A stretch of DNA of 64,000 bases, from positions 875,263-939,262 of the forward strand of contig CAWFCE010000002.1 of NCBI GenBank assembly GCA_963814275.1, read 5' to 3'. Under the pieces are notes generated by a model that saw nothing but the letters and a program-made list of their open reading frames with translations, was not told the DNA's origin and searched no databases. This DNA comes from Candidatus Parcubacteria bacterium (GTDB lineage Bacteria; Patescibacteriota; Patescibacteriia; Patescibacteriales; UBA12075). Below, piece after piece: positions 6,236 to 63,999 of this stretch (positions are counted from its first letter, which is position 1; each line of letters starts with the position of its first letter). The translations under genes were made by a program, and so were the position numbers.

Positions 6236-6296
6236 GGTAATTCTCCTTCGTATGCCGCAGTGGCCATTATGATAAACCACTGCGGCGGATTTGCTA

Positions 6297-9697: not shown

Positions 9698-9810
9698 AGA
9701 GCAGGGTGGAAATTTGGCAGAAGCGGTGATTGACTAAATACGGATTTTATGGTAAAGTTGCTGGTTAACTAAAATTCATACACACACTTTTTCGTTTTAT
9801 TTATTGAGAT

Positions 9811-12649: not shown

Positions 12650-12753
12650 AATAATCCAATAATCCAATTTTCAATCAATAACAAATAGCAAATATTTAAT
12701 TTTGTGAGCTTGGGTTTAAATATTTGAAATTGAAAATTAAATATTGATTGGAT
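12650..12753. repeat. dispersed AT-rich element, copy 1
   Basis: The 31-mer aataatccaataatccaattttcaatcaata (12650-12680) is identical to 56449-56479. The 24-mer ttgaaaattaaatattgattggat (12730-12753) is identical to 56608-56631. Confidence 0.8.
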
Positions 12754-12829
12754 AATTGGGTCACTGATAATTGAACATTAATTTTCAAAACATTAATAAT
12801 AGCTAATTATTGTATATATAAAAATATTT

Positions 12830-31845: not shown

Positions 31846-32051
31846 ACGGGCAGAGAATTTTTGGATAAGATTTTTTAAAGCCAACGGGTAATAAGCGATA
31901 GAACATCAGTAATAAGTCCGAAATTCAACGGTAATCCAAAACAAGAGGCTTATTACTGATTACCGAAGTCTTGTTACTCAATAATGGCGTAAACAATCGG
32001 GTATAATAATACATATCATTATAGTTTGAACCTGTAATCTATTGTTTTAAT

Positions 32052-34097: not shown

Positions 34098-34225
34098 GAC
34101 ACAAGGACACAAGATACAATAACCAAACAAATCCCAATTACCAAGGCTCAAATTATTATAGAAAAAATTGGTGCTTGGGATTTGCGGTATTGTTTGTGTC
34201 CTTGTTTATTGTATCTTGTGTCTTT
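34097..34225. repeat. long imperfect hairpin between 32052..34097 and tgt
   Basis: Arm aagacacaaggacacaagatacaataaccaaacaaatcccaa (34097-34137) against ttgggatttgcggtattgtttgtgtccttgtttattgtatcttgtgtcttt (34176-34225). The caaacaaatcccaa motif also occurs at 58930. Confidence 0.75.
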
Positions 34226-34230
34226 ATATT

Positions 34231-37356: not shown

Positions 37357-37884
37357 CGGGGTAAGCGGATAGCTGATCGATTATCGCTTGCGATAATCGG
37401 TAGGAAAGTCCGGACTCCCGCCAATGCCGCTTACGCGGACTTGGCGTCGCGGCAGTGGGTAACGCCCACCCAGGGCAACCTGAGGGAAAGTGCCACAGAG
37501 ACTATACTATTTCCCGTAGCCCATAACCCGTAACACATAGCACGGTCACGGCCAGAAGAAGCTTTTGGCAATTAGTTATTCGTGAAGTCTATTATTGGCT
37601 ATGATATGTCATCGATCCGGAGTTATGTGTTTCAAGTTATGGGCTACGAGAAAGAAAGGTGAAAAGTCGGTTGATGCTTTTTGTTCTCGAGATAAAAGGC
37701 TACAACCTTCGCCTCCCGGTGACGGGATGTGCGCGGTAAACCCTGCCTGGAGCAAGAACAAATTCATTGCTTCGCAATGAAGAAAAGTAGTTCGCAAGAG
37801 CCCGGTGGCGACATCGGGCCCAGATAAATAGCTATCCATTCGGCCTCGCCGAAGGACAGAATCCGGCTTACAGCTTACCCCGGA
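37357..37884 (+). ncRNA. rnpB: RNase P RNA, bacterial type A, with greatly enlarged P12
   Basis: P1 cggggtaagc (37357-66) pairs with gcttaccccg (37873-82). Universal blocks GGAAAGTCCGGACTC, GTGGGTAACGCCCACC, AGTGCCACAGAGA, GGTAAACCCTGCCTGGAGCAAG and ACAGAATCCGGCTTACAG appear in canonical order. About 528 nt. Confidence 0.85.
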
Positions 37885-37966
37885 ATGAATAGAATTTAAT
37901 GTATATTAATGGTTTATTACTTTTGGTCAGAAGTTAATTTGAATATTATTTTTCCCGCCGAATTGT

Positions 37967-42129: not shown

Positions 42130-44595
42130 ATGCCAGAATCAAAACCAACTGCCAAAAACAACGGTTTGGCGAGCAACGTGGTAAAAAAATCCACGGGAGG
42201 ATTGGATATTATCATTGCCGGCGCTATCATGCTGGTATTTTTCCTGTGTCCGATATTCTTTACCGGCCTGGTGGCGCAGGGGATCGGTTTCGAGAAAATG
42301 ATCCTATTTTATTTCCTGGTCCTTCTGGGCGTGGTTGCCTGGGTGACCAAGGGAGTTATCCAGGGCGAGCTGAGCCTGAAGCGGACGCCCCTGGATATAC
42401 CGATCTTGGCGACACTGGTAATTTTCGCCGTTTCCACTATCCTGTCGGTAAGCGCCAAGGACTCGCTTATCGGAGCCTACGGCAGTTCGGCCAAGAGTTT
42501 TGCCGCCTTGTTCGTGTTCGCCCTCTTCTATTATCTGGTGGTGAACAATCTGAACGCCAAACGCATCAGGAATATATTCTGGTCTTTCGCCGCAGGCGGC
42601 GGATTGGTCATACTATTGTCTTTTCTCCAGCTGATGCAGTGGAACCCCCTGCCTTTTGACCTGTTGAATTCGCGGAGCTTCAATCCGATCGGATCGCTAT
42701 CCGGTCTGACTATGTTCATAATCGCTATTTTGCCGCTTTTGGTCGTGGGCGCGACCCAGATGGGCGAGATCTTACCCCAGTCGAAAAAGGTTACCGTAAT
42801 TGTCATGAAGTCTGTTTTGGGGCTGGTGATCGCCGTCGGTCTGGCGGTACTGATGCTTCTGAACGGCTTCACTTTCTGGCCGGTTGGTATTGTCGGCATC
42901 GTTATCGTGCTGATGTTTTTCCTGGCCAAGATCATCAAAGTATCCAGTAATAACCTGATCATACCTTTGGGGGTGTTCCTGGCCCTGATCATTCTTCTGG
43001 TATTGGGAAATTTCAACATCATCGACCTGAAGTTGCCGGCCGAAGTATCGCTTTCGCGCCAGGCATCATGGGATATCGCCAAATCGGCTATCAGGGAGAA
43101 TCCGCTTTTCGGTTCCGGCCCCTCGACCTTTTATTATGATTTTTCGAAATTCAAGTCAGCCAATTTCAATAATTCAGTCCTCTGGAATGTCCGTTTCGAC
43201 AGCGCCTCCGGCTCGATCTACGAGCTTCTGGCTACGACCGGGGTGCTGGGCGTAGTTGCGGCGCTGGTCGTCGGCCTGATTGTCTTGTCGGTATCGTTCC
43301 TGACGCTGATCAAGGGCAGTGATAAGCGGATCAATTCTATCCTTCTGGGGCTGTTTGCCAGCCTTATTTCCGTTTTGCTGTTTTCCGTGTTATTTGCCTT
43401 CAACAATACCATGATCCTGATGACCATACTGATCGCGGTATTTTCGGTCTCTTCCAGCCTGGTGATGTATCCGGAGCGTTTCAGCGACCTGAAGCTTTCG
43501 TTCCGGGCCTCGCCGAAGTATGCCCTGGCCCTGTCCGCCATATTCCTGTGCGTGAGCGCGGGAGTGGTGGTGCTCTTCACGATGGGCCTGAAGCTCTATC
43601 TGGCCGATATCTACGCCCGCCAGGCCCTGGCAGCGGGCAGCCAGGAGGCGAGGATCGCGAAATACCAGCAGGCGGTGCAGCTGGCGCCTTACCAGGATGC
43701 CTATTACATCAGCCTGGCCAACAATTATATGGCCATGGCCAACCAGGCCGCTTTGGCCGGCAAGAGCCAGACGGATGTGGGCACGAACCTGAGCCAGGCG
43801 ATCGAAGGCGGCAAGAAGGCGGTCGAGATCGCCCCGAACAAAGCCGCCAACGATGAATCGCTGGCCCTGATCTACGAAAACGCGTCTTTCTATACCCGGG
43901 GAGCGCTGGAATGGGCGGAACAGCTCTACAACCAGGTACGGGAGCTGGACCCGAAGAATCCGACTCCGGACCTGCGCATTGCCCTGGTCAATATGGCCCG
44001 CTCGAACGCCGAGACCGATCCGGAAGAGAAGAAGTACTATATCAATGAAGCGGTCAAGAAATACGACGACGCGATCGCCAAAAAAGGCGATCTGGCCGCG
44101 GCCTATTACGGCAAGGCGATCGCCCAGGAGAAACTGGGCAATCTGGATGACGCGATCGAACAATTGAAGCGCGCCAGCCTGGTCGCCAGCAACAACCTCG
44201 ATTACCGCTTCGAACTGGGCCGCATGTATTTCAACCGCGGCGTGACCCAGCCCCAGATCGAACAGGACGCGTTCCAGGAGATCTCGGAGCAGGATCTGAC
44301 CCCGGAGATGAGCCCGGCGTCCTCGACCAAGCCGACCAATCTGAGCGTCAATCCGCAGCAGCCGACCGGCAGCGTGGTCAGCACCAATGACGACCTTAAG
44401 GCGGCGGAACAGCTTTTCCTCTCGATCGTGGCGGCCAACCCGAACCACGCCAATGCCCTCTATTCGCTGGCCGTCCTCTATCAGAAGACCGGCGAGACGG
44501 AGAATGCCAAGGCGGCGGTCAATAAGCTGTTGACGGTGATCAAGGATGAAAAGACGCAGAATGCGGTCCGCGACCAGTTCAAGGATATTCTCTAA
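42130..44595 (+). CDS. polytopic membrane protein (O-antigen ligase/polymerase-like) fused to C-terminal TPR repeats
   Basis: About 12 TMs over aa 1-480, with NPLFGSGPSTFYYDF. C-terminus has TPR-like units (AAYYGKAIAQEKLGNLDDAIEQLKRA; ANALYSLAVLYQKTGETENAKAAVNKLL). Confidence 0.6.
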   Translation: MPESKPTAKNNGLASNVVKKSTGGLDIIIAGAIMLVFFLCPIFFTGLVAQGIGFEKMILFYFLVLLGVVAWVTKGVIQGELSLKRTPLDIPILATLVIFAVSTILSVSAKDSLIGAYGSSAKSFAALFVFALFYYLVVNNLNAKRIRNIFWSFAAGGGLVILLSFLQLMQWNPLPFDLLNSRSFNPIGSLSGLTMFIIAILPLLVVGATQMGEILPQSKKVTVIVMKSVLGLVIAVGLAVLMLLNGFTFWPVGIVGIVIVLMFFLAKIIKVSSNNLIIPLGVFLALIILLVLGNFNIIDLKLPAEVSLSRQASWDIAKSAIRENPLFGSGPSTFYYDFSKFKSANFNNSVLWNVRFDSASGSIYELLATTGVLGVVAALVVGLIVLSVSFLTLIKGSDKRINSILLGLFASLISVLLFSVLFAFNNTMILMTILIAVFSVSSSLVMYPERFSDLKLSFRASPKYALALSAIFLCVSAGVVVLFTMGLKLYLADIYARQALAAGSQEARIAKYQQAVQLAPYQDAYYISLANNYMAMANQAALAGKSQTDVGTNLSQAIEGGKKAVEIAPNKAANDESLALIYENASFYTRGALEWAEQLYNQVRELDPKNPTPDLRIALVNMARSNAETDPEEKKYYINEAVKKYDDAIAKKGDLAAAYYGKAIAQEKLGNLDDAIEQLKRASLVASNNLDYRFELGRMYFNRGVTQPQIEQDAFQEISEQDLTPEMSPASSTKPTNLSVNPQQPTGSVVSTNDDLKAAEQLFLSIVAANPNHANALYSLAVLYQKTGETENAKAAVNKLLTVIKDEKTQNAVRDQFKDIL

Positions 44596-44620
44596 ATCAG
44601 ACCACAATCTAAAATATAAA

Positions 44621-44654
44621 CTCCTCTTTCCGCACGGAAAGGGGAGTTTTTTTT
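44621..44654 (+). terminator. rho-independent terminator
   Basis: ctcctctttccg-ca-cggaaaggggag followed by T8. Confidence 0.85.
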
Positions 44655-44866
44655 GCTCAGATAACCAGTAAAAAGACAAATTTGCTCTTTAAAACTGCAC
44701 GGAAAAGTGCAAATCCGGTACATTAATTGTTGATAAAATGTACATAATATGGTGTTTTTAGTGGATTACCATCAAAAGATTAAAATAATTTAATCTCTTT
44801 TTACGCTATTTTTATACTATTAATTTAATTAGCCAATATTAAATAAAATAAACTTGATTTATTCGA

Positions 44867-44895
44867 TTGACAGGAGGTGTTTATATTGCTAAAGT
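44867..44895 (+). promoter_or_regulatory. promoter candidate of an ORF-less unit
   Basis: TTGACA (44867-72) - 17 nt - TAAAGT (44890-95). Confidence 0.35.
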
Positions 44896-45032
44896 TATTA
44901 AATAATTTGGAGGCAGGTTAAGGAGGGGTGAAGAGGTTATTACAATTCTTTTATTTCAATCCATGCCGAATAAACGCATTGCATCCCTTCCCCCGACAAT
45001 TTATTCTAATATAAGCGTTTATATAAATGGTT

Positions 45033-45061
45033 AAACCGGCGTTTTTGACGCTGGTTTTTTT
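45033..45061 (+). terminator. rho-independent terminator closing the ORF-less unit
   Basis: aaaccggcg-tttttga-cgctggttt stem running into T7. Confidence 0.6.
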
Positions 45062-45224
45062 GTTATAAGCGAATTCCCGATAATTAAGATTAAGAAAATT
45101 TAATATAATAACTGTTTATTAACTCAGGCGTTGCCCCTGTCCGGTAACTGGCCCTTAGTAGGGAAGGGTAAAGGTCGGCTCCCTGTTGGCCAATTACCAC
45201 GGCGTAACGCTAAAAGAAAACATT

Positions 45225-46405
45225 ATGAAAAAGAAAGTCTTATTAACCCTCGTCGCCGTGGCCGCAGTCGCTATCGGCGTCGTCGGAATGAGCGCCTTCG
45301 AAGCGCATGTCATCAACGTGACAGCAAAGATCGAAAACGCCCTCAGCGTCACCCCTGACGAAATTGAGTTTGGTACCGTATTCCCACAAGAGCAGCTAGA
45401 TCGCGAAGTTCTCGATTGCGATGAGTGAGTCTTTTGTTGAGGAAGGAAGAACTGACGATATTGACTACGTAATAAAGCAAAAGCCGAAATGTGCGCTATT
45501 CGAGGATAACGTCATTACTGTCTACGGCCGTGTAGTTGAAGATGAGCAAGGAGTATTTAGTTGTGCGGACGAAGGTTACACTATGCTCCCCGCTTCTTTG
45601 CCCCTACCTTTCCAAACATGATGCCGATCCAGATGATCAGAATGATGGTTCTCTTGATGCGTTTCACGGACCAACTTCCGTGGGCGAAAATGGTTGGACC
45701 AACGAAACTACCAATTTTTATGCAGTTCCTGGTCGTTTAGCAAAATCACAAAACGACACGACTGACCTTTGGAATATTGACTTAAAAGTTCCTTGTTTCG
45801 ACGGTATGTGCGATCAGGGTTGGGCGGATTATGTAAGGGGCATAAATCCTGACGCTGACCCAGCCTCCTATGTACAGCCAACAGATATGGAACATCAAGT
45901 TTTTGGTTGCGATCTTTGGATAGAAGTAACCGATGTTAGTCGTTTTGAATTACCAGATACTCAAGTTGAAACAGCTTCGATAGCATTAGAGAATAAAGAT
46001 GAAAATGATAGCTGGATGGTTGCGCAAGACGATTATAGAGCAACTTTAGTTTATACACCAGTTAATAATGTGTTTGATTACACATTGACTGGCAAGGTAA
46101 TGCAACCAAACGAAGAATACTGCTTCATTTATTATGCAGATGGTTGGCCGGGTAATCACCCTGGTTATCTTTTTGGTACTCAGATGTCTGATAGTCTTGG
46201 CAATATAAACATGTCTGGTAGTCCTGATCCTGGATTGGATTTACCGGATCCCGCTGACACCAATTTTGCAAGCGGAGGAGCCAAAATATGGTTAGTACCG
46301 TGTTCTGATTACAACCAGGGGTCGTATTCCATGATAGACTGGAATCCAACTCAGTATTTGTACGAGTACAATACAATCTCTTTTGATGATACTGATGTAA
46401 ATTAA
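45225..46405 (+). pseudogene. SipW-locus paralog A (shared N-domain); two +1 frame breaks
   Basis: Three overlapping ORFs (45186.., 45421.., 45536..) align colinearly with intact paralog B. MKKKVLLTLVAVAAVAIGVVGMSAFEAHVINVTAKIEN... / ...IDYVIKQKPKC... / ...LLCPYLSKHDADPDD...DLWNIDLKVPCFDGMCDQGW...GCDLWIEV. Breaks near 45408 and in the C4 run at 45588-91. Confidence 0.65.
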
Positions 46406-46631
46406 TCCTTCCTGCATTCCTCCTCCGGTGGTTATAACCGGAGGAGGGGAGATGAACGATTAATTTGAGGCTGTCATTCTGGAGACCGCAGGCCGGTAGA
46501 ATCCCGGGCCATTGGCTACAGTTCGGGGGTAACCGATAAATTTTATCACACGCGTCGGGATCCTGTCGCCGCTTTGGCCCTGGGGACCGCATATAATAAT
46601 ATTTAAACAATGATAAATAGTAATTGCCTTT

Positions 46632-49135
46632 ATGAAGAAAAAAATCTTACTAAGCCTTAGCGCCTTCCTGGCCGTCATCATCGGCGTAGTCGGAATGAGC
46701 GCTTATGAGGCGCATGTGATCAACGTGACCGCCACGATCGAAAGCGCGATGGTCGTCGATACCACGGCGATCGATTTCGGCACCGTCTTTCCCCAGGAAG
46801 CGATCGACGAAACTTTCGATGTCACCCTGAGCCAGTCATTCCAGAATCAGGACCGGGTCGGTGATGTGTCGTATGTCGTGCGGCAAAAGCCGAAATGCTG
46901 GAGCGAAAGCACACAGCAATACGGCCTGGTAAGCGAGGATGAGGACGGCGTATATTATTGTGCCGATGGCGGCGATTACGAAATCCTGCCCATCCTGTGC
47001 CCGTATTTGTCCAAACACGAAATTACCGCTGACGGTGACGAAGAGAATGACAGTGCCGGCATCGCGGCCTTCCATGGCCCGATCACGCCCTGGAGCCTGC
47101 AGGATACGATCGATACGCAAGTGGCCGGTTATCTCTACAATCCGGACGATATATCCGATACCTGGCAGATCGATTTCCGCGCGCCCTGCTTCGAGGGTTA
47201 TTGCGCCCAAGACTGGGAAGAGTTCGTCCGCGAAAACAACCCGGAAGCTGACCCGGCCGGCTATATCCTGCCGCTTGACCAGCAAGACGCGCTGATGGGC
47301 TGCGATCTCTGGGTAGAAGTCGACTACATCGGCGCGGATGGCGAAGAGGGCACAAAGAACAGCGAAGATACGGTCTGTCAGGATGACGATGCGGATAGTT
47401 ATTCTATCCAGGGCGGGGACTGCGGTCTGATCGACTGTGACGACACGAACGCCGGTATCAATCCGGGCGAAGAGGAAATTTGCGGCAACGGCATTGACGA
47501 TAATTGCGACGGTCAGGCGGACGAGGATTGTAAGGTAGTGTGCGAACCGGAGTGCAGCGGGAAAATATGCGGTGATGACGGCTGTGGCGGCATCTGCGGC
47601 ACCTGCTTCACCGGCGAATATTGCGATGACAGTTTCACTTGCGCAAACGCCGATGTCGATGAGGACAATTACGAGGCGCTGATTGCGGGCGGTGATGATT
47701 GCAATGACAGCAATGCTGACATAAATCCCGGTATGGACGAAGTATGCGACGATCAGATCGACAACGACTGCGACGGTGATGTTGACTGCGCTGACAGCGA
47801 ATGCTCAAGCGAGCCGGCATGTGTATATAATACAGTTATGCTTCTTGAAGACAAAGATGCAAATTGGGACCCGATAATAAACGGTCGTTATGGCAACTTA
47901 TATTATAATAATGCTGGTCCAACTTTCGATTGGTATTTAGATATTAAAGGTATGAATGCAAACTCGCTATACAAATTAGTCTATGCTCCAGATCCTTGGC
48001 CGCAAGGATTGCCTGTTAATGGCCCATATACCGTAAAAACATCTATTACTTCATTTACAACCGATAATAATGGCGATTATTCGAATTCCGGTATCACTGA
48101 CTTGGGTTATGACATTCCGCATCCAGATGATGCTTTATATCCTGATTGGTCTAAAATTTGGGAATACCCGCGGGACTCCATGATGATTATAAAGCTACAG
48201 GTTTTGACCGAATATCAATGTTATTTGAAACTGAAATGGTAAATTATGACTATACTGGAAATAACGCTCCTATTTGTACAGACGTTGATTCTGATGGATA
48301 CGGCAGTGGGACGGATCGAGAAGATTGCACTTATACTGAGGAAGATTGTGATGATAGTGACAATAGTATCAATCCTAGCGCGAGCGAGGTTTGTGATGAT
48401 GGAATTGATAACGATTGCAACGGCGATGCGGATTGCGCTGACAGCGCCTGTGTAGCTGAGCCAGCTTGTGCGGTGACCATAACATTTAACGACCTGGGAG
48501 CTGTAACACAATACGGTTACACCCATAATTATGGTGGTGCGGCAGCTAGTTTTACTTACAACACGCCTTCCGACGACAAGATCTCCGGTACATTTACTGC
48601 AACCGGTTTGAAACCTTATGAGACTTATCAATTGAAATTTGAAGGCAAGCCAGTGTGCGCCGGCGGTTCGGACGACCTAGGTAACGAATATATCGGATAT
48701 TTGGGACGCTGGTGGAATAATACAGTGCCAACAGGTAATGTTGATGATTCTTATTACGAGAACAATTCGGTATACCATAGTGGAACTAAATGCATAGTCG
48801 GATATTTAGTATGGGGATATGTCACAGCTGACGCAAGTGGTAATGTAACAAAAGCAGTTTCTGCCGATTCCAGCTACCATGTACTTTGGTGCTCCGGTGG
48901 TACTTGCGGATCAAGCAATAATTTACAGCTGAACGCGGCAGACGGGAGTATATATCCATATTGCTATGCCGCAGATGTGAACGGGCAAATCGAAAGAGGA
49001 ACGTGCGGCAGCTTGTCTTTCTCCCCCGGCGTTTATGATCTTAAAATGATATTGAACGAAGAATCATTCCATCAAAACACATACGGTGTATGGACAGCAG
49101 TTATGGATTCGGATATCAACTTTAGCATCTACTAA
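46632..49135 (+). CDS. SipW-locus paralog B: shared N-domain + MopE-like Cys-rich metal-binding-type repeats; one -1 frame break at ~48160
   Basis: MKKKILLSLSAFLAVIIGVVGMSAYEAHVINVTATIES. Repeats of the type DCDDTNAGINPGEEEICGNGIDDNCDGQADEDC. ORFs 46632..48242 and 48158..49135 rejoin (..SKIW|GIPAG..) with homology to A (..AKIWLVP..) across the break. Confidence 0.65.
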
Positions 49136-49184
49136 AATATAGATTATAATATAGATTAAAAATTTTGCAGGAGGAGCAATCAAT

Positions 49185-51116
49185 ATGAAAAAGAAAATTT
49201 TAGTGACAGGAGGGGCGGTAATTGCAGTGGTAATCGGGGTTATCGGAATGAGCGCTTTCGAGGCCCATGTCATCAATGTAACCGCCCATATCGAGAACGG
49301 GCTTAACGTATCCAGCAGCGAACTAGAATTCGGGACGGTCATTCCCCAGGAGTATTTGGAACGGAATTTTTCCGTCGGCTGAGCGCGTCATTTTTGGCCG
49401 AATCGAGGCTCCAGTATATCGATTACGATATAATCCAATTGCCGAAACCGGTCTGGCCCGAACCGGAGGGATGCGGCCAAAATTTCGAAGAAGTCGATGC
49501 GGCCAGGGCGTATTGCCATGACAATCCGACTGATTACGATTGTACTACCGCGACCTTTGCCAATTTCTGTCGAAAGACGATGCCGATCCGGAAGACGGAA
49601 ACGATACGGAACATCCTAGTTACTTCCAGGGTGACCACTGTAGCTTATCTGTAGTCCAGGCAGGCGGCGAGCGGCCAAAGCGACGGACGAAAGCGATGAC
49701 TGGATAATCGATCTCAAAGTACCGCCCGTGGCAGGATATGTCGGATTGGAATGGCCCAGCGGCTGCCCTACTGTGGCGGCTCAGGCGGATTACGGCTGCG
49801 ATATCTACGTCCAGGTCACAGGCGTGAATGGCGAAGACGGTCCGGTTTGCGAGCCGGACTGTGCCGATAAGCAATGCGGCGGCGATGGCTGCGGCGGTAA
49901 CTGTGGAATCTGCGGTACGGAAGAGAGTTGTATTGGCGGCGCTTGCGTAGCCGAAGCGGCGGACGCGGATATTGACGGGGATCCGGATAGTACCGATTGC
50001 GCGCCCAATGATGGCAGTATTTATCATGGTGCCGCCGAGGTTTGCGATGGAATTGATAATGACTGCGACGAACAGGTAGATGAAGACCTGGAATCAAACA
50101 ATACCATTCTGTCTGTCGGCATTTGCGCCCAGGCATACGAAGTATGTCTGGGAGTGGCCGGTTGGGTGATGAATTATCCTGTTACATATGAATTTGTCGA
50201 AATATCGTGTGATGGATTGGATAATGACTGTGATGGATTAACTGACGAAAACTGTATTGATTGTAATGCATTGAATTGCGATGATGGTAATACCTGTACG
50301 ACCGACTCCTGTGACATAAATATCGGCTGCCTGCATAACCCAAATAGCGAGCCATGTAGTGATGGAGTATATTGCAACGGCCCTGATGTATGTTCGGGCG
50401 GAACCTGCAGTATACATGGTGGCAATCCCTGCGCCGGGCAAAATGTCGGCCCGGATTGCAGTGATTCCTGTAATGAATCAAGCGATGATTGCACAGCCAG
50501 TGACGCAGACGGAACAAGCTGTACAGGAGGACTTTGCCAATCGGGCGATTGTGAATTGTCGTGCGTACCGGCTACGGAAATTTGCGATAATAAAGATAAC
50601 GACTGCGACGGACAAATCGATGAAGGACTGGACCAACCCTCCGTTTGCGGCATTGGCGCCTGTCAAAGGAATGGCACTAATATGTGCATGAACGGACAGT
50701 ATATCAATACCTGCTTTCCGGGTTTGCCGATAACCGAAATATGCGGAAATACAATCGATGACGATTGCGACGGTGTAGCTGATGAAGATTGCGATGATTC
50801 ATGCACTACGGCCGACGATTGCGATGATTCAAACTCGTGCACTTCTGATCAATGCACAGCAAATCATGAATGTTTAAATCTGGACCGGGGGGTATTGGAG
50901 TGCATACAGTTAGGTGGTTCTGGAAGCTGTACAGGAGGTGTGGTTACTTGCAGCGGTGGGTCGCCTGTCTTATGTCCCAATGGCTGTAATGATAATAATT
51001 CTTCAACCTATGATTATTGCGATAACGCCGGGCAATGTCTGCACTATACTTACCCCGGTGCAGGATTTCATATATGTTTTCCCTCCTGGGGAGGCGGACA
51101 AGTCTGTTTTCCATAG
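49185..51116 (+). pseudogene. SipW-locus paralog C: shared N-domain + long Cys-rich region; three -1 frame breaks
   Basis: MKKKILVTGGAVIAVVIGVIGMSAFEAHVINVTAHIEN. The pieces in frames 3, 2, 1 and 3 align to A/B (..NFSVG|LSASF.., ..CTTA|DLCQFLSKDDADPEDGND.., ..SPGRRRAAKATDESDDWIIDLKVP..GCDIYVQV). The C-terminal 460 aa are rich in CDG.DNDCD and EGF-like Cys spacing. Confidence 0.6.
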
Positions 51117-51155
51117 TAAGGATAAGTTTAACGAATTATTTAACTATTAAATATT

Positions 51156-51643
51156 ATGACTGAAGAAAATAAAAACCAGGGAGGGGAGCTTCATGGCGAG
51201 GTGCCGGCAAAGGGCATTATCGAGAAAAAAAAGCATAAATCAATCGGCAAAAAGATCGTTTGGGTAATAATCAGTCTGATCGCGCTGGTTCTGATCGTGC
51301 AGGTTGCTGTAGCCGACCGCTATAGCGCCCAGGTACTGGTGATAGAAGGCGAGAAGAAGGTTGGGGTCAATCCCACGACCGAGAAGCTTGATTTCGGGGA
51401 TTTGTCGGCTGATACCTCCGCTACCCGTTTCGTCACCCTCACCGCCGGCGGATCGGATACTTCATCCATGTGATGAAATTCGGCTCGATCGCCGAACTGG
51501 TCAAAGTGAACGAAAATAATTTCACTTTACGCAAAGGTGACGAGAAAAAGCTTGAATTCTCGCTCTATATGCCGCCGTCAGCGCCAGTGGGGGAGAAATA
51601 TACGGGGCAGGTGTGGATATTCAAGTTACCGAAGATTTGGTAA
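51156..51643 (+). CDS. small TM-anchored beta-sandwich-like protein; one -1 frame break at ~51458
   Basis: N-terminal TM IVWVIISLIALVLIVQVAVADRYSAQVLVIEG. The first ORF stops at 51473, but frame 2 continues YFIHVMKFGSIAELVKVNENNFTLRKGDEKKLEFSLYMPPSAPVGEKYTGQVWIF to 51643. Confidence 0.5.
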
Positions 51644-51687
51644 GCAATTATTCCGCATTATCATTTATTCGCCAGAGAAACAAATAG

Positions 51688-52152
51688 ATGGGGCCAAACA
51701 TTAAAAAAATATTTAAAAAGATAATTGAATGGGCTGCGTATGCGGCGATATTCATAATAATCGTCTGGGGAACACCGCAGGTTTTGTCGTATTTTTTACA
51801 AACCGAGTATCCGATCGCTTCGATCACATCCGGTTCGATGTGGCCGGTTTTGAAAGTCGGTGACCTGGTTCTGATCCACGGTATAAACGGCAAAGAGGAT
51901 CTGAAAATCGGCGATATTATCGTTTACCGCAACCAAGCCGCCAGCCTGGGTCCGGAAAACAGTTTCATTATCCATCGCATCGTCAAGCTCGGCGATACGA
52001 TCGTAATTACCAAAGGCGACGCCAACAACATCGAAGACCCGCCAGTGGCTTATGACCAAGTAATCGGTAAGGCGGTGATGCTGGGCGACAAACCCTTGCG
52101 CGTTCCCTGGCTGGGTAATTTATCAATAATGTTCAATAAGAGTAAAAGTTAG
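51688..52152 (+). CDS. sipW: signal peptidase I, archaeal/ER (SipW) type
   Basis: One TM, catalytic Ser box ITSGSMWPVLKVGDLVLI, His box IIHRIVKL, and TKGDANNIEDP. 154 aa. Confidence 0.85.
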   Translation: MGPNIKKIFKKIIEWAAYAAIFIIIVWGTPQVLSYFLQTEYPIASITSGSMWPVLKVGDLVLIHGINGKEDLKIGDIIVYRNQAASLGPENSFIIHRIVKLGDTIVITKGDANNIEDPPVAYDQVIGKAVMLGDKPLRVPWLGNLSIMFNKSKS

Positions 52153-52328
52153 TTGTATTCAATCCCGTCATCCTGGAGCCCCGAAGGGGCGATAGGATCC
52201 CAGGGTGCTATAAATAATACAGCGGTCATTCATGATTATTGCAAGATGGCGCGAGGTCCTATCGGCCTGCAGCCTCCCGGATGGCAGTAACTAACAAAAA
52301 AATTAGAAGCAATACACCAAGATAAAAT

Positions 52329-54760
52329 ATGGACAACAGTCGCAGACAAAGAAAATATGTGATCGACCTAAGGCCGCGGCCTTTTGTATTGCGGCGCTGG
52401 CTGAAATGCTTGGTACCGTTAAGGGCCAATGAATATCTGCCTCGTTTGTCCCGCAAGAGTCTGGCTATAATTATGCTGATAGCCCTGGTCACAGGACAGA
52501 CAGTGTCGATGGATGCCTTCGAATCGCATATCATCAACGTGATCGCGCGGGTGAGGAACGATGGACTCAATATAAATATCGCCGGCGGCCAATTTTGCTC
52601 TGGCGATGTAGAGATGATAGAGTTGACCACGCCGTCCCCGAATAACACGATCATCTATACCCTGGACGGGAGCGAACCGGTTTGCGGTGTAAACGGGCTT
52701 GATTACGGCGGCATCTTCGCCCTCAGCCAAAATACGACGATAACCGCGCGCGTTTGCGACGATGGCCATACCAGCCAGCCGATATCCTGGGATTTCGAAT
52801 TTTCTCCGGAATTTTGCGGCGGCTGCGAGTCCGATCCGGGCGATTTCTGTTCGGAATCGATGGGCGGATGGGGACAGGTTTGCCATGGCAATAATCCCGG
52901 CTGTCTCCGGGATAACAATTGGGACGCGGTGATAGGCGGCAGTCTGGTCGTAGGCACCGGACACACCATTATCCTGACCGGACCGGATGCTGTGGAAAAT
53001 TACTTCCGGCCGGCGGCACGCCCGCTTCATTGCCCCAAAGCTATATAGACCCGGACGATACCGGGGCCGGGATATTGGGCGGGCAGGTGGTGGCGCTCAA
53101 ATTGAACGTATTGTATTCCGCCGCCGGCATCGGGATCAATTCTTCCGGCAATACCGCGCCCCTAGGATCACTAAAGATAAAATCCGGTTTGTTCAAAGGG
53201 ATATCGGTATCTCAATTTCTTGATTTGGCTGAACAGGTTCTCGGTGGCGTTAGCGGCGGCTTGGCGGCATATGACGCCACTATAAGCGATCTAAGCGATA
53301 TGGCGGCGAAGATCAATGAAAATTTCGACGATTGCGATACCGATGAAGGTTATCTGGTGGTACCGGAGTGCTATACCGAAGTGTGCGGTAATGAAAATAT
53401 CGATCCGGGAGAGGAATGCGATGACGGTAATCTGACCAACGGAGACGGCTGTAGCGCCGATTGCCGCCGGGAAGAGTGCGTTCCGGGCGAAGAAATTTGC
53501 GACGATATCGATAATGATTGTGACGGTATTATCGATAACGTTTTCGAAGCCGCCAGTATATACGGGACACCGGCACAGGCCCGGTTGCATAATGGGACGC
53601 TGGTTACCGATAAAGTGGCGCTAAGTGATAATAAATACGCCCAGCAGGACGTGAACGGGACTAAATATATTTATCTGGAATGGCAATTCGACGGATTACT
53701 GGCCGATGACCTGATCACTACGAGCACGCTGAAACTCGAGCACAAGGAAAGCGACGTGGATATTACGGTAGAATGGTGGAACGGCGTGAAATACACCGAA
53801 GTTTGCGATCCGGTGGAATTCGGCAGTGATACGGTATCAACCTGCGACCTGGCGCCATACATAGACAATCCGGACAAAGCCAAAAACGTTAAAATCCGCC
53901 TTCGGCTCGAACAAGACGGCCATTGCAATGAAAAATTGGATTGGGCGTATCTGGAAATTAGTTACCACTCACCGGCAGATTGCGCATCGGTCTGCGGGAA
54001 TGCCCGGCTGGATGCGGGGGAAGAATGCGACGATGGTAATATTACCGCAGGTGACGGTTGCGACGACAGCTGCTTGACAGAAGGACCGGATCATTGCCTC
54101 AAGATCAACGAAGTATATTACCGGCCCGATTGCGCCCATGGCGGCGATGATAAAGAATGGGTCGAATTGTATAATGATTGCGGCTATACGGTCGATCTCG
54201 ATGGCTGGAAACTGAAAGACAATAAAAAGCAGGAAAAGATCGATGGGCAATACAACCTTCCGGCAGGGGGATTCGCGGTAATCGCGGCCTCTAAATCAGT
54301 TTGGGGCTATTGGCCGGGTATTCCGGAGGAGGCATTGAAAATCAGCCAGGGAAAAAGCCGCTTATTCGATAATCTGGACGATAGCGACCATTTATTCCTC
54401 TATGACGCCCAGGGAGAGCTGATGGACGGAGTCAGCTGGGGCAGGGATAAGTCAGCCTTCGACCCGGCAGTGGATGGAGTCAAAGAAGGGCATTCGATTT
54501 CACGCAAAAACAAAGGCGTCGACACCGATACGGCGGCTGACTGGATGGATACAGACAAAAAATCAACGCCTCCCGGCCCGAATCCGGGGACAAACCCGCA
54601 TAATGACGATGGCAGCCTGATACTGCCGGAAGATCCCGGCAATGAAGTATCCGGCGATAAGGACGACGCCGATGACGAGAACAAAAGCTGGATCAACGAC
54701 CATTCCCGCGGCTGGCCGGATGGAGGACAGGATGAGCATTCGTCGCAAAGGTATCAATAA
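52329..54760 (+). CDS. SipW-locus protein D: chitobiase-C-like domain, two Myxococcus-type Cys-rich repeats, lamin-tail domain; one -1 frame break at ~53003
   Basis: [80 protein letters not shown] and [30 protein letters not shown] motif KINEVYY...[20 protein letters not shown]. Start uncertain: ATG 52329, or TTG 52446, which gives a cleaner signal peptide. Confidence 0.55.
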
Positions 54761-54763
54761 TGT

Positions 54764-56380
54764 ATGATCAAGATATTCGAAAAAAATAAATATCGCATCG
54801 GCCTGGCCATGGTCATGGCTGTTTTGGCTTTGGCCGCCGTACGGATGCAGGCCAATTTGATGCGGGTCAGTGCGCAAAATCTTCCCGTAGTAGTCAACAC
54901 CAACGAGCTGTCTTTCGGTACGGTATTTCCCGGAGAAATACTGGAAAAATCCTTTGCTATCAATTATTCGGCCGAAGCCGGCGATGTACATTATCGGATA
55001 GTACAAAAGCGCAAGCCACTGCCGGAAAACCATCCGGAATATCCTGATGGCGGCGATCCGGACATGCCCGGCTATTACCGGAATCTTTGTCCGTCACTGG
55101 CCAAATTGAGCCTGGAGAATGAGGGCGATACCGAATCTGCGGCGGCATTGGATGAAGAGGATATAAGCGATACCTGGGTTCTCCGATTTAGTGTACCGGC
55201 GATATTCGGCCAGGTGGCCCAAGACCACGAGGGCGGAATCGTCGATGCCAGCGGCGAATACGGTTGTGACATCTCAATAGACGTGGACGAAGATGAGCCG
55301 GTTTGCATACTTGGCGAACTTTGGCGGATCGGGGATAGCGAGGCGAGTCAGCTTGATAACCCGGTAGATGAATTGAACTGGCCGGGAGCTTTCGGCATAT
55401 TCCCTTCTTTTGCCGATCCTTATATAATCGATAGCAATGTTTATGCCGATTTTCCCTATAATTCCAACTATTCAAGCGGGTACGCTGCCGATTTCGATAT
55501 TAACTTTTATTTCAACAGCCCGGTAACGGCGCAAGCCGAACTGGTGCTGTCCTGGGGACCCGGGCACAGTGGTAGTGAACGAAAAGAAATATTATTGGAT
55601 AATGTTTCGGTCGGAACCAGTCCAATCCGGAACGGTTCGTTTGTAACGGGCTGGTGGGAAGAAATGGAGCGTTTCAGCGATAGTTTTACATTCGAATTAA
55701 ATCCCGGTAGCCATACTTTGAATCTAAAACAGCTAACCGGGGACGGGACGATTTGGGATTATGCCGTAATGAATATAATCAGCTGCGAGAATAATGATAT
55801 TGTGGAAACGTTCTCGATCAGCGGCGCCGGGGGAGGCGGTAATCGATTGTTCGCAGCTGATCCGAATAACGGCATGACTACCGGCGGCATTGTGGTTGAG
55901 GGAGAAATGGGTGCACCTGAATTGTCGGTGGAAAAACAGGTATTGGCAGATTTCGCGAACCCCGGGGACATTGCCGTTCCTTATCGCGTTACCGTAACAA
56001 ATAACGGCAATATTTCGGCTTTCAATATAGTATTGACCGATAATCTGCCCCAATGGTTCATATTCAGCGATAATGGCGTGACGAAAAAAACCTGGCTACC
56101 ATTCGAACTCGCTCCGGGAGCATCGAAAAATTTCGATTATACCGTGGATATTTCTCCGTCAGCCGCGGCAGGAAATTATGCCAACACTGTGATAGCCGTG
56201 GCTGATAATAACGACCCCGTACAGGCAACAGCCGTCTTAAACATAAAAACCGTATCGGTGCTGGGTGCTTTACTTGACGCAACCGGCTTCAGTGTCAGGG
56301 AGTTCGCGCTATTGATCGCCATGATCGTCATTCTGCTGGGGTTGTCATGGCATATCAGGAAGAATAATAAAGCGATTTAG
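54764..56380 (+). CDS. SipW-locus paralog E: shared N-domain + DUF11 repeat + LDATG sorting signal
   Basis: ELSFGTVFPGEILEKSF...VHYRIVQKRKP...LCPSLAKLS...DISDTWVLRFSVP...YGCDISIDV. DUF11-like VEKQVLADFANPGDIAVPYRVTVTNNGNISAFNIVLTDNLP. C-terminus is LLDATGFS + TM + HIRKNNKAI. Confidence 0.75.
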   Translation: MIKIFEKNKYRIGLAMVMAVLALAAVRMQANLMRVSAQNLPVVVNTNELSFGTVFPGEILEKSFAINYSAEAGDVHYRIVQKRKPLPENHPEYPDGGDPDMPGYYRNLCPSLAKLSLENEGDTESAAALDEEDISDTWVLRFSVPAIFGQVAQDHEGGIVDASGEYGCDISIDVDEDEPVCILGELWRIGDSEASQLDNPVDELNWPGAFGIFPSFADPYIIDSNVYADFPYNSNYSSGYAADFDINFYFNSPVTAQAELVLSWGPGHSGSERKEILLDNVSVGTSPIRNGSFVTGWWEEMERFSDSFTFELNPGSHTLNLKQLTGDGTIWDYAVMNIISCENNDIVETFSISGAGGGGNRLFAADPNNGMTTGGIVVEGEMGAPELSVEKQVLADFANPGDIAVPYRVTVTNNGNISAFNIVLTDNLPQWFIFSDNGVTKKTWLPFELAPGASKNFDYTVDISPSAAAGNYANTVIAVADNNDPVQATAVLNIKTVSVLGALLDATGFSVREFALLIAMIVILLGLSWHIRKNNKAI

Positions 56381-56448
56381 TCATTAATTTTTAATAATCC
56401 TGTATAATAATCCAGTTTTCAATAATCCAATAATATTTTTAAATTTTA

Positions 56449-56631
56449 AATAATCCAATAATCCAATTTTCAATCAATATTTAATATTCAATATCAAATA
56501 TATAAATATAAATTTTTTCCATTGTGATTGAGGTTAATATTAGTAAGTTATATTATACACCAGACACACTATATTATATTTTATACTATCACTTGTAACT
56601 ACACCGTTTGAAAATTAAATATTGATTGGAT
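56449..56631. repeat. dispersed AT-rich element, copy 2
   Basis: Ends identical to 12650-12680 and 12730-12753. The internal segment is 79 nt longer than in copy 1. Confidence 0.8.
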
Positions 56632-56700
56632 TATTGAATTATTGAAAATTGATATAAGAAAAGGATTTAATCAAAAATCTTTTTTTGCTTTCAGAGAATA

Positions 56701-61212: not shown

Positions 61213-63999
61213 ATGACAAATACCCTATGGCGAAGGAGGGGTGTTTACAAAACTTTGCATGTCTTGAGCATGCTCTTACTTATTTTCAACATGTCTGCAT
61301 TAGGCGTGTTTTTTGTGGCTGAAAGCGCCAACGCTACAGACACGGTAAAGAAGGAAAATCCCATTACTGTCAAAGCTTATAAAGTGGTTTGCGACAGTGA
61401 GGAGGATTTGCCGAATTGGATGGGGGCGGCGGGATTGCCGTCCGAAACCTATTTTACCGACTATTCCGAACGGATCAGCCCCAGCGCTATTGAAGATTTT
61501 CTGGCGGACCGGCAAGGCCGCTGCCATCTGGAAAGCGGCTGGAAGTTCCAATGGAGTAATACCGGCGAACCGAACCCTGGCGATAACATGGGAGAATATA
61601 TATCAGATAAGTGGACAACGGTCGGTCCGACCGGCGCTGATGGCGCGGTCAGTTTTGTGGTTGATTCCAGAAACCAAGTAAGAGTGCGCGAAGTCTGGCA
61701 AGAAGGATATCAGGAATTTGCCGGGATATCCGCGAGCGGGAATGTGAGTGCCGAGATGGCGTGCGGCAGCGATGTGCATTATTATGATAATTTCGATTAT
61801 GTTGACACGAAATCTGGAGTAGATGATTATTACTGCGTCGCTTTCAATGTCATGGAAAAAAAGCCCAGTTCAACCGCGACCGTAAACGTACAGAAGCTTA
61901 TTAGCGGGACCAGCCAAGACGGTTGGGAATTCGAAGTTAACGGTCAGGATATCGCGACCGCTACCGCTTCCTCGGTGGTCGGTGGTTTTGCCCCTATTAC
62001 AGTATCATTTGACTGTGACAATGCATCCCTTAATGTACTTGAACATCAACAAGCGGACTACTCCCTGGCTACCGCCACTTGCTACAAAACCGATGACGGG
62101 ACCTATGTCGTAGGCAGCAGCGATACCGGCAAAAACGGCGTGTTCAATATCACGGTGAAAGACGGTGACCAGGTGAATTGCATATTCGAAAATGAAACAG
62201 TCAAAAAAGAAACGAAAGGCTCGATCAATGTCTGCAAATACCAGGACGTCGAACTGATCGGGCAAAAAGACGCCAGCGACCAACCCCTGGGCGGTTGGGC
62301 GGTAAGGGCGGTGCTAAACGACAATACGGTCAAGCACGGAACAACCACTCTGGATAACGGCGGTTGCTATACGTTTGAAGATCTTGACCTCGGCACTTGG
62401 GCAGTTCTCGAGGATTACCCCGACAATACCTGGGGCCAAACCTATCCGGCGGCACAATTAAGCATTGATCCCAATGAGCAATATAAGCATGTAGTGGTAT
62501 TGTCCGAAAGCACAACCAGCGCGGAAGTATACTTCCTTAATAAAAAGACAGAAACGCCCCAGACCGGCGCGGTCAAAGTATGCAAATATTATGACGCGGA
62601 CGGAGTGTATGCGGCTGAAAATACCGACGAAAGCGCGGCCACCGATCCCTGGACATTCACGATAACGGACGGAAGCGGCGCCACTACGTCCCTGGTATCG
62701 TCTGCTGAGAATAACTGTGTTATATTCGATAATCTGGCATACGGTAATTATCAGATTGAAGAAGCGGCACAGGCGGGCTGGACCCGGATCTTCCCGGCCG
62801 CTCCGCTTAGCGTTACGGTAGATTCGACCAGCACCGATGAATATAAATTCGTAAATTATAAACAGCCGATAACCGGTACCGGCTCTATCCAGGGCTGCAA
62901 ATGGAACGATGAGAACGGCAACGGCATCTGGGAAGGCCCCAATAACCCGATCGGCAATTACGCCACCTCCAGCTACGAAACGGAAAAACTGGCCGGCTGG
63001 CAGATCGTATTGGAAGGCCCGGTGAAGGCCACCACTACAACCGGGGAGAATGGCTGCTATTTATTCAATAACCTGCCGGACGGAGCATATACGGTGAGTG
63101 AATCCGGAAAAATCGGCTGGGAACAGACCTATCCGAATGCTTCGACATCAGGCGCGGTATTGAGCGATAGCCAATATACCTACAGCATCAATGTTTCCAC
63201 TTCCGCGCCGTACATGTACAATGATTTCGGCAACCATCTGCTGCCCGGCCCTATTTGCGGCAACGATATCAAAGAAACAGGGGAGCAGTGCGATGACGGC
63301 AATCTGGCCAATGGCGATGGCTGCAGCGCGCAATGCACGATAGAAGCCAAACAGCCGGAATGCGGCAACAATATCATCGAATCCGGCGAACAGTGCGACG
63401 GCACGGATACTCCGGCCGGGCGCACCTGCCTGAGTAATTGCACCCTGGCCTCGCAGGGCGGCGGCGGCCTCCTGATACCGACGAACCGCGGCGGCGGCAC
63501 CAGCGGCCAGACCAGCGGCGAACCGCCAGTCGTGGCAGGCGAGGAAGGCGCACCGGCCCTGACGATCGATAAGAGTGTTAACCAGACATTCGCCAATCCG
63601 GGGGATAAGGGTGTCGAATATACCATAGTAGTGGCCAACAACGGCAATCTGACCGCGTTCACGGTGGTTTTGGCCGACAATCTGCCCGATGTCCTGACCT
63701 ACAGCGACGACGGCAGCATTGAACGTTCCTGGCAATTGGGCGATATCGCCCCGGGCACGAGCCAGACCATTACCGTGAAGGTCAATGTCAGCAAGGATGC
63801 CCAGCCGGGCAAAGTCGCCAATCTGGCTACCGCCAGCGCCGCCAACAACGGCGAGGTGAGCGATTCGGCCGAACTTGAAATACGCGAGATCACGGTATTG
63901 GCCGAAACCGGTTTCAGCCTGGGTGAATTCATCGTCCTCCTGTTCACGGCCGCCTGCGCGGCCGGGACAGCCTTCGTCCTCAAGCGGCAAACCGCGTAA
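61213..63999 (+). CDS. cell-wall-anchored adhesin: SdrD/Cna-B-like repeats, two Myxococcus-type Cys-rich repeats, DUF11, LAETG sorting signal
   Basis: Signal peptide. Repeats GSINVCKYQD..GGW.V.., GAVKVCKYYD.., GSIQGCKWNDENGNGIWEG..LAGWQIVLEG...ENGCYLFNNLPDGAYTVSE. CGNDIKETGEQCDDGNLANGDGCSAQC. DUF11 block. C-terminus is VLAETGFS + TM + KRQTA. Confidence 0.8.
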   Translation: MTNTLWRRRGVYKTLHVLSMLLLIFNMSALGVFFVAESANATDTVKKENPITVKAYKVVCDSEEDLPNWMGAAGLPSETYFTDYSERISPSAIEDFLADRQGRCHLESGWKFQWSNTGEPNPGDNMGEYISDKWTTVGPTGADGAVSFVVDSRNQVRVREVWQEGYQEFAGISASGNVSAEMACGSDVHYYDNFDYVDTKSGVDDYYCVAFNVMEKKPSSTATVNVQKLISGTSQDGWEFEVNGQDIATATASSVVGGFAPITVSFDCDNASLNVLEHQQADYSLATATCYKTDDGTYVVGSSDTGKNGVFNITVKDGDQVNCIFENETVKKETKGSINVCKYQDVELIGQKDASDQPLGGWAVRAVLNDNTVKHGTTTLDNGGCYTFEDLDLGTWAVLEDYPDNTWGQTYPAAQLSIDPNEQYKHVVVLSESTTSAEVYFLNKKTETPQTGAVKVCKYYDADGVYAAENTDESAATDPWTFTITDGSGATTSLVSSAENNCVIFDNLAYGNYQIEEAAQAGWTRIFPAAPLSVTVDSTSTDEYKFVNYKQPITGTGSIQGCKWNDENGNGIWEGPNNPIGNYATSSYETEKLAGWQIVLEGPVKATTTTGENGCYLFNNLPDGAYTVSESGKIGWEQTYPNASTSGAVLSDSQYTYSINVSTSAPYMYNDFGNHLLPGPICGNDIKETGEQCDDGNLANGDGCSAQCTIEAKQPECGNNIIESGEQCDGTDTPAGRTCLSNCTLASQGGGGLLIPTNRGGGTSGQTSGEPPVVAGEEGAPALTIDKSVNQTFANPGDKGVEYTIVVANNGNLTAFTVVLADNLPDVLTYSDDGSIERSWQLGDIAPGTSQTITVKVNVSKDAQPGKVANLATASAANNGEVSDSAELEIREITVLAETGFSLGEFIVLLFTAACAAGTAFVLKRQTA

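Follow-up and report, generated by a model that had tools for sequence, protein, structure and literature searches.

Single-base frame breaks in a parcubacterial SipW locus as probable errors of a local consensus

Eight single-base indels that break the reading frames of surface-protein genes in a Candidatus Parcubacteria bacterium are probably errors of the deposited consensus rather than genuine damage to the genes. The window, which is the whole stretch of DNA analysed, comprises 64,000 nt (GCA_963814275.1, contig CAWFCE010000002.1, 875,263-939,262 of the forward strand) and belongs to a 1,274,625-bp single contig (1.27 Mb) of an uncultured Patescibacteria (CPR) bacterium. It contains exactly eight frame-breaking single-base indels, all of them in paralogous genes that surround the gene of a SipW-type signal peptidase. 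The cell itself probably makes intact proteins from this locus, namely the peptidase and the cognate secreted subunits A-E. In the deposited 1.27-Mb genome, fragments of 67, 287, 536, 299, 462, 105, 239, and 486 aa are annotated; most likely, five intact surface proteins exist in their place. Pseudogene, phase-variation, or surface-protein-repertoire analyses of this CPR genome would be misled.

The SipW locus and its frame breaks

The genes of the locus lie on the plus strand in the order A, B, C, F, SipW, D, and E. Gene A (45225-46405) combines a SipW-type signal peptide, a conserved N-domain of ~240 aa, and a C-terminal domain. It is in three pieces in the window, and its reconstruction of 392 aa (393 codons with the stop) is colinear in the alignment with full-length homologs of 371-415 aa. 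Gene B (46632-49135), in two pieces, shares this N-domain and adds MopE-type Cys-rich repeats and a C-terminal domain; it is reconstructed as 834 aa (835 codons with the stop). Gene C (49185-51116) carries the N-domain of A and B plus Cys-rich repeats and is split into four pieces. Gene F (51156-51643), in two pieces, encodes a small membrane-anchored protein, and is followed by the SipW-type (archaeal-type) signal peptidase I (51688-52152; 154 aa), which matches TIGR02228. Gene D (52329-54760), also in two pieces, contains a SipW-type signal, an Fn3-associated domain, Cys-rich repeats, and a lamin-tail domain. Gene E (54764-56380; 538 aa) is intact; its copy of the N-domain is divergent and is combined with a DUF11 domain and a membrane anchor at the C terminus. 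According to the ORF layout and tblastn, colinear homology between the paralogs runs on across the frame changes in A, B, and C.

The breaks are placed by base-level comparison with two near-identical contigs, an ENA contig (L001) and a Logan contig (L002), and by alignment of gene A to full-length homologs. The refined positions lie 0-22 nt from those of the initial annotation. In gene A, an extra C at 45411 (GTT[C]TCG) is absent from L001 and from homolog P0009; without it, gene A reads REVSIAMSESF, matching both. The second break in gene A is a C4 run at 45588-45591, for which the family-consistent state is C3 (MLPLLCPYLSKH). L001 has C5 here, so both assemblies are out of frame with different run lengths. 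In gene B, a T is missing at 48162-48163 (GGG^AAT). This break had been interpreted as a G3 run that should be G4; the intact state in L001 is instead GGGTAAT, reading KIWVIPAGL, to be compared with KIWLVP in gene A. The first break in gene C is a single T at 49379-49380 where L001 has TT, and L002 starts at 49381, the first base past this site. At 49542-49544, a C is missing and an A/G substitution is present at 49544; the window has TTGTACTAC, and both L001 and L002 have TTGCTGCTAC, reading DYDCCYRDLCQFLSK. The third break in gene C is a missing T at 49672-49673 (GAGC^GGCC), for which L001 and L002 have GAGCTGGCC, reading GELAKATDESDDW. Gene F has T2 at 51460-51462 where L001 and L002 have T3, and gene D has a single C at 53002-53003 where both contigs have CC and are in frame. 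Inspection by eye finds no methylation-type or other common motif around the indels.

The clustering of indels in the SipW locus is genuine. Outside the locus, 28,713 nt of the window are covered by the Logan contigs of one sequencing run, and the two sequences differ there by 5 mismatches and 0 indels. L002, which comes from the same run, shows four indels relative to the window over 3,622 nt (49381 to 53002), as compared with none in 25.2 kb of other Logan-covered window sequence; the chance of all four landing in those 3,622 nt is ~1.6e-4. Adjacent same-strand ORF pairs outside the locus within the window contain no split-gene candidate. One suspected split gene on the minus strand (4059-5003 and 4907-6280) is rejected, as the downstream ORF is equipped with a separate RBS, ATG, and lipoprotein signal. 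The initial annotation was therefore correct that the eight breaks are confined to the SipW locus, as the sibling comparison also shows, and right to reject uniform sequencing error, given that the breaks cluster and the rest of the window is clean.

Sibling assemblies and the origin of the breaks

L001 and L002 represent the same population as the window, with an identical SipW protein and ~99.8-99.9% identity to the window, and the two agree over 6,977 nt. SipW is identical and intact in all three assemblies. L001 is in frame at 45411 and at each of the six deletions. L002 was assembled by k-mers from raw reads and is intact at all four break sites that it covers. Gene C is intact in L001 (644 aa), and both contigs have genes F (162 aa) and D (810 aa) unbroken; gene E is without differences between the assemblies. 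Other data showing the genes intact had been named beforehand as the outcome that would overturn the breaks, and this is what is found at the level of assemblies, not at the level of reads.

Between 44495 and 53002, 15 indel events but just four substitutions separate the window from L001. All 15 indels fall within 44983-53002, and none falls from 53003 to 56478. Of the four substitutions, three lie next to an indel, and the only isolated one, at 44902, is intergenic. The differences that are frame-neutral in the window are at 44983, 45214, 45246, 45687, 47558, 49088, and 48948-51, the last being an in-frame 3-nt variant. Private insertions at 45246, 45687, and 47558 break the frames of L001 in genes A and B, and at these sites the window has the family consensus. 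Hence, the errors appear private to each assembly and none is common to both. The types differ as well: the window has mostly deletions, and L001 has insertions.

This indel-only, locus-limited, assembly-private pattern agrees with a low-quality long-read consensus at a locus that varies among strains. The window contig probably derives from long reads, to judge from its length as a 1,274,625-bp single contig, the Flye-style name of its sibling ('contig_78913'), and the ends of the Logan contigs. These ends lie inside A8, T8, and T5 runs and right after the T/TT site at 49380, which is nanopore-like. Strain heterogeneity is indicated by the divergent tip of L001, whose first 41 nt differ from the window at six positions, four of them synonymous, and by the in-frame variant at 48948-51. 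The surface-fibre locus may therefore sit at a boundary of strain variation, where low effective read depth, or the splitting of reads between two near-identical contigs, would make polishing fail locally. The result would be a draft-quality consensus at 44.9-53.0 kb (~8 kb), with about one single-base indel per kb, in a window that is otherwise clean. Indels outside repeats are typical of read error, not of replication slippage. Mis-polishing induced by repeats is rejected, as the paralogs are at most 77% similar in DNA, over only ~120 nt of signal-peptide sequence.

Nanopore errors are predominantly indels, which produce pseudo-frameshifts in MAGs, more so at low coverage (PMC8103633), and Kastor is a tool for correcting such long-read indel errors (PMC12007338). 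The present case resembles these artefacts in that single-base indels occur without substitutions, genes are cut into adjacent ORFs, and the ORFs are restored in other assemblies; the known effect is also stronger at low coverage. It differs in that such artefacts are usually genome-wide, whereas here they would occupy ~8 kb of an otherwise clean 64-kb window, and in that most of the sites are not long homopolymers; the sequencing technology, too, is deduced here.

Three observations weigh against a consensus artefact. The segment 53003-56353 is also common to L001 yet shows no differences, and a simple duplicated-contig model therefore fails on the exact extent of the error zone. In addition, if L001 is a short-read de Bruijn assembly, of which its divergent 41-nt tip could be read as a sign, its own frame-breaking insertions become harder to dismiss as errors. 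The third is the difference in error type between the two assemblies, mostly deletions in one and insertions in the other.

One alternative is that the alleles are real, the window strain and the L001 strain having each inactivated several fibre genes by independent frameshifts, either under relaxed selection or under selection for surface-antigen loss. Inactivation commonly targets surface-protein loci. In accordance, more than one strain exists, as seen from the mostly synonymous differences in the 41-nt flank of L001 and the codon-level variant at 48948-51, and lesions occur in both assemblies at this locus and nowhere else that could be checked. We nevertheless consider real private alleles unlikely. 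If about one indel per ten substitutions is assumed, the 5 substitutions in 28.7 kb predict ~0.15 indels in 8.5 kb, as against the 15 seen. Neither nonsense nor isolated missense changes occur in the 8 kb that would hold inactivated genes, and several of the events are not of the slippage type. The intact state of L002 at all four sites also argues against this reading, as do 164 homologous copies elsewhere in which no frameshift is detected.

Gene decay in particular is poorly supported. Decay would leave substitutions at the neutral rate beside the lesions, but the isolated substitution at 44902 stands against 15 indels; it would also leave lesions common by descent, but the window and L001 have no identical lesion, and even the shared C run is C4 in one and C5 in the other. 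The genes are otherwise perfectly preserved. Real indels arising from a locus-targeted, indel-biased mutation process, or from very strong diversifying selection for subunit loss, in coexisting CPR strains are improbable. Among the three alternatives that the initial annotation listed, choosing none, we thus favour a consensus artefact at a strain-variable metagenome locus, while decay and homopolymer switching fit poorly.

The main value of the locus is as a caution for genome interpretation: consensus errors can be tightly local, at a strain-variable locus, in an otherwise clean long-read MAG. Since errors can be limited to one locus, it is unsafe to argue from intact housekeeping genes that breaks elsewhere are biological.

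Homologous loci and mechanisms of frame change

The comparison with related loci suggested earlier covers 77 loci (747 kb) with 164 single-frame domain copies, and no frameshift is detected among them by a same-diagonal criterion that recovers seven of the eight window breaks but only one of L001's own. A SipW homolog is present in 42 of the 77 loci. Other searches bear on the window's own alleles. Among the cluster members, there is no third variant of A, B, or F, and one cluster is contaminated with unrelated 53-aa peptides. The broken-allele products C1 (65 aa), B1 (536 aa), and D1 (239 aa) have no exact record elsewhere, but this absence carries no information, as the source contig is not returned either. 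A full-text search of papers for the run and assembly accessions gives no match. The search for homologs of gene A gives no third-assembly ruling on that gene, because the near-identical sibling proteins are not among its matches. The best match to SipW among GTDB species representatives, which were scanned for orthologous loci, is just 43% identical, so that none of them is a close relative.

Phase-variable homopolymer tracts constitute contingency loci in surface genes of Neisseria, Haemophilus, and Campylobacter, and the known tracts are ~7 nt or longer. The present locus is similar in that the frame changes affect surface-protein genes and one C run varies between assemblies. Phase variation, by which the fibre genes would be switched on and off reversibly through slipped-strand mispairing at short homopolymers, could explain the three lengths of the run at 45588-91 (C3 as deduced from the family, and C4 and C5 in the window and L001, respectively), and several other sites are runs of 2-4 nt. 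However, the tracts at the eight sites are 1-5 nt in length instead of at least 7, and the three hits in gene C and two in gene A are unlike a reversible switch at one site. Three or four events lie outside any repeat: lone Ts lost after GGG and after GAGC, a C inserted between Ts, and one complex event. Furthermore, this family shows no frame variation in other assemblies, including the 164 homologous copies. We therefore regard on/off switching, which had been raised for these genes before, as very improbable.

Programmed ribosomal frameshifting or transcriptional slippage would rebuild full-length proteins from the sequence as written. Beyond the frame changes themselves, nothing speaks for it. 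The eight sites have no common motif, and shifts in both directions (+1 and -1) would be needed. L001 and L002 have the same genes in frame, and the 164 homologous copies are without a detected frame change. Because the sibling sequences are in frame, this mechanism is effectively refuted, and we give it almost no weight.

A putative SipW-type fibre system

The underlying locus is of modest interest in its own right: a SipW-type peptidase is accompanied by five paralogous subunits, which have in common a conserved N-domain that Pfam does not cover. The peptidase matches TIGR02228 with 87.1 bits (cutoff 51.85), but reaches no more than 45 bits with the Bacillus SipW equivalog NF046067 (cutoff 190). 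Genes A, B, C, and D have in common the motif [SD]A[FY]E[AS]H[VI]INV right after the hydrophobic segment, and the motif is invariant in homologs. These neighbouring secreted proteins share a cognate signal-peptide and predicted cleavage region.

Subunits A-E look like fibre or adhesin subunits of the TasA/CanA type. In a Pfam-A scan at E<=1, the N-domain does not hit the TasA/camelysin family (PF12389), and it has no sequence match in the PDB. Its predicted fold is β-rich, and its best structural matches, which are weak, are to donor-strand fibres (CanA, TasA, and type-1 pilins), with E=0.012 for CanA, E=0.025 for the TasA fibre, and TM scores of 0.33-0.37.

The arrangement is reminiscent of tapA-sipW-tasA of Bacillus subtilis, which produces a biofilm fibre (PMC9245690, PMC10151520). 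In both, secreted proteins with a characteristic signal-peptide and cleavage region in common are encoded together with their own dedicated signal peptidase of the archaeal type. In contrast, the substrates at the present locus are five paralogs that differ in their adhesin-like C-terminal domains (MopE repeats, LTD, and DUF11, and vWA in homologs). The host, too, is a CPR bacterium, the N-domain is without a TasA/camelysin match, and SipW is below the cutoff of the Bacillus equivalog. The N-domain is widespread in Patescibacteria, with 1,609 homologs found.

The SipW gene cluster and its frame breaks

The gene cluster occupies 45.2–56.4 kb of the window on the + strand. It comprises the paralogs A (45225–46405), B (46632–49135), and C (49185–51116), the small membrane protein F (51156–51643), a signal peptidase of 154 aa (51688–52152), and genes D (52329–54760) and E (54764–56380). 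The peptidase matches TIGR02228, the archaeal-type signal peptidase I model, with 87.1 bits (cutoff, 51.85); its match to the Bacillus SipW equivalog model is weaker and under that model's own cutoff. A common motif, [SD]A[FY]E[AS]H[VI]INV, immediately follows a hydrophobic segment in the proteins A to D. A, B, and C have a ~240-aa N-terminal domain (N-domain) in common, of which E carries a more distant copy, and the C-terminal regions of the paralogs contain MopE-type Cys-rich repeats, a lamin-tail domain, or DUF11.

In tblastn comparisons between the paralogs, homology runs on across frame changes. The alignment of B with A passes through frames 3, 1, and 2 in turn, B tail and C behave similarly, and the junctions are visible in three-frame views. 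The source, one 1,274,625-bp contig deposited in NCBI and ENA, has the resulting gene fragments annotated as separate proteins. A look-up of contigs encoding exactly the same SipW protein yields two siblings from the same population: ENA ERZ25039495 contig_78913 (L001; 11.9 kb, 99.79% identity to window 44454–56353) and a contig of the Logan assembly of run ERR11571143 (L002; 7.1 kb, 99.93% identity to 49381–56478). L001/L002 encode C (644 aa), F (162 aa), and D (810 aa) each in one ORF.

We place the breaks with a base-by-base difference list and an alignment of the reconstructed A with full-length homologs. A has an extra C at 45411 and a C4 run at 45588–91, where C3 is consistent with the family and L001 has C5. 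Single bases are missing after 48162 in B, after 49379, 49542, and 49672 in C, after 51460 in F, and after 53002 in D. The initial annotation counted exactly these eight, with coordinates 0–22 nt off at most, but its proposal that the G3 run of B should be G4 is slightly off, as the intact sequence continues from GGG with a T and reads KIWVIPAGL.

Differences between the assemblies

The breaks were also said to cluster in this locus, and the run behind L002 bears this out. Outside 44.5–53.0 kb, five further Logan contigs of ERR11571143, together with the L002 tail, align to 28,713 nt of the window with 5 mismatches and no indels, whereas L002 has 4 indels in the 3,622 nt of 49381–53002; the chance of all four landing there is about 1.6e-4. 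Genes elsewhere in the window, such as CysS, TGT, Mur ligase, and PBP, give full-length domain matches.

Over 44495–53002, 15 indel events and 4 substitutions separate the window from L001, and three of the substitutions adjoin an indel. With a genome-wide divergence of about 1.7e-4 per site (5 in 28.7 kb) and an assumed ratio of about 1 indel to 10 substitutions, 8.5 kb should hold ~0.15 indels. No nonsense and no isolated missense changes occur in the broken genes. Such near-pure indel differences point away from biology.

In the family alignment, L001 has private frame-breaking insertions of its own: an extra C at 45246, which wrecks the signal peptide of A; the C5 run at 45588; an extra C at 45687; and an extra G at 47558, which truncates B. 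The window has the family-consistent state at the private insertion sites. A of L001 is an open 382-aa ORF solely through two mutually compensating shifts, between which 100 nt are out of frame and read RFFAPTFPNMM... in place of the conserved LLCPYLSKHDADP. Lesions private to each assembly likewise point away from biology. Real private alleles, with independent inactivation in two strains, are unlikely and would require a locus-targeted, indel-only mutational process.

Three to four of the eight window events lack slippage character (a single T is missing after GGG and another after GAGC, a C has been inserted between Ts, and one event is complex), which again points away from biology. Phase variation fits the C run at 45588–91 and no other site; with tracts of just 1–5 nt, several hits in one gene, and some events outside repeats, it is very improbable. 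Programmed frameshifting is excluded by the sibling sequences and homologs, which are in frame, and repeat-induced mis-polishing is unlikely given that DNA identity between the paralogs does not exceed 77% and extends over about 120 nt.

A comparison with related loci, suggested by the initial annotation, covers 77 metagenomic loci (747 kb) with 164 single-frame N-domain copies and a SipW homolog in 42 loci. A same-diagonal/different-frame tblastn detector, which recovers seven of the eight window breaks but just one of L001's own, finds no frameshift in them. The gene family elsewhere is not prone to frameshift, and this points away from biology as well.

Separately, a T/TT difference at window 49088 (L001 4645), 45 nt 5' of the B stop, gives two C-termini, ...GVWTAVMDSDINFSIY in the window and ...GVMDSSYGFGYQL in L001.

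Probable origin of the frame breaks

Biologically, the frame breaks are probably not a real feature. Two things suggest that the source was assembled from long reads: it is a CPR genome contained in one contig, and its sibling bears the name 'contig_78913'. Logan contigs of ERR11571143 end inside homopolymers, A8 (20677), T8 (28139), and T5 (43140), and the first base of L002, 49381, directly follows the T/TT site of the break after 49379. Because the k=31 graph breaks at 8-nt homopolymers, the reads appear to carry homopolymer-length noise, pointing to nanopore-type data. In such data, indels are the main error and cause pseudo-frameshifts in MAGs, an effect that grows when coverage is low (PMC8103633).

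Over its first 41 nt, L001 departs from window 44454–44494, the 3' end of a Wzy_C/TPR gene (42130–44595), at 6 positions, all G/C and 4 synonymous. This tip looks like a diverged second-strain allele rather than noise, and places a boundary of strain variation immediately upstream of the error zone. At 48948–51, in the C-terminal domain of B, an in-frame 3-nt indel and two substitutions give DGSIYPY in the window and DGTVSYPY in L001 (SI versus TVS); in contrast to the single-base indels, this variant probably represents a true strain polymorphism. The population therefore comprises more than one strain.

The surface-protein locus would thus sit at a strain-variable boundary, where effective depth may be low or reads divided between two near-identical contigs, which could leave both consensus sequences at draft quality. 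This reading is the most economical, its final step being inferred, but it does not account for 53003–56353, also common to L001, which is error-free. Among the three explanations in the initial annotation, the consensus artefact is favoured over decay of redundant paralogs and on/off switching.

Protein family and other features of the window

Searching with the reconstructed A retrieves 1,609 homologs. Those that are named come from Patescibacteria, Parcubacteria, or Wildermuthbacteria MAGs, and many fuse the same ~240-aa N-domain to vWA or LTD domains. The N-domain has no match at E ≤ 1 in Pfam-A, TasA/camelysin family included, and none among PDB sequences. Its AlphaFold model (pLDDT 89.5) gives weak fold matches, the best being to donor-strand fibres (CanA cannulae, E = 0.012–0.019; TasA fibre, E = 0.025; type-1 pilins). 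The tapA-sipW-tasA-type system combines a dedicated peptidase with cognate secreted subunits (PMC9245690). With a dedicated peptidase and putative cognate secreted subunits, the window locus may by analogy work like such a system, although no sequence match places the N-domain in the TasA family. The 90%-identity protein cluster with the A fragments also holds unrelated 40–53-aa peptides (MVQYNSVNVKLL...), present on up to 84 ENA contigs, apparently a database clustering artefact and not biology. The DUF11 C-terminal region of E shares 40% identity with the C-terminal end of a large SpaA/SdrD-B/DUF11 surface protein (61213–63999), which extends past the window end and is also matched by the Cys-rich repeat of D.

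An apparent 1-kb ORF-free gap is occupied by a bacterial class A RNase P RNA (37357–37886, +; 194.7 bits), which is 530 nt long where the model has 367 positions and thus contains large insertions. ARAGORN finds no tRNA gene in the whole 64-kb window. The overlapping ORF pair 4059–5003/4907–6280 (−), a suspected split gene, represents two genuine genes. The 1,306-aa ORF at 77–3997 has no Pfam match and contains a 114-nt direct repeat (2465–2578 and 2603–2716; 92% identity). A dispersed intergenic repeat of about 45–65 nt (82–87% identity) lies at 12715–12779, 56442–56506 (inverted), and 56608–56652, and its copies coincide with other Logan contig ends, those of contigs L004, L002, and L005. 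An imperfect palindrome of ~130 nt (34096–34225; 70% self-complementary) bridges the gap between the divergent genes 32019–34151 (−) and 34168–35358 (+, tRNA-guanine transglycosylase). Upstream of the Wzy_C gene 9811–11208, an intergenic or small-ORF region contains a tandem direct repeat with a ~153-nt unit (9406–9711; 96% identity).
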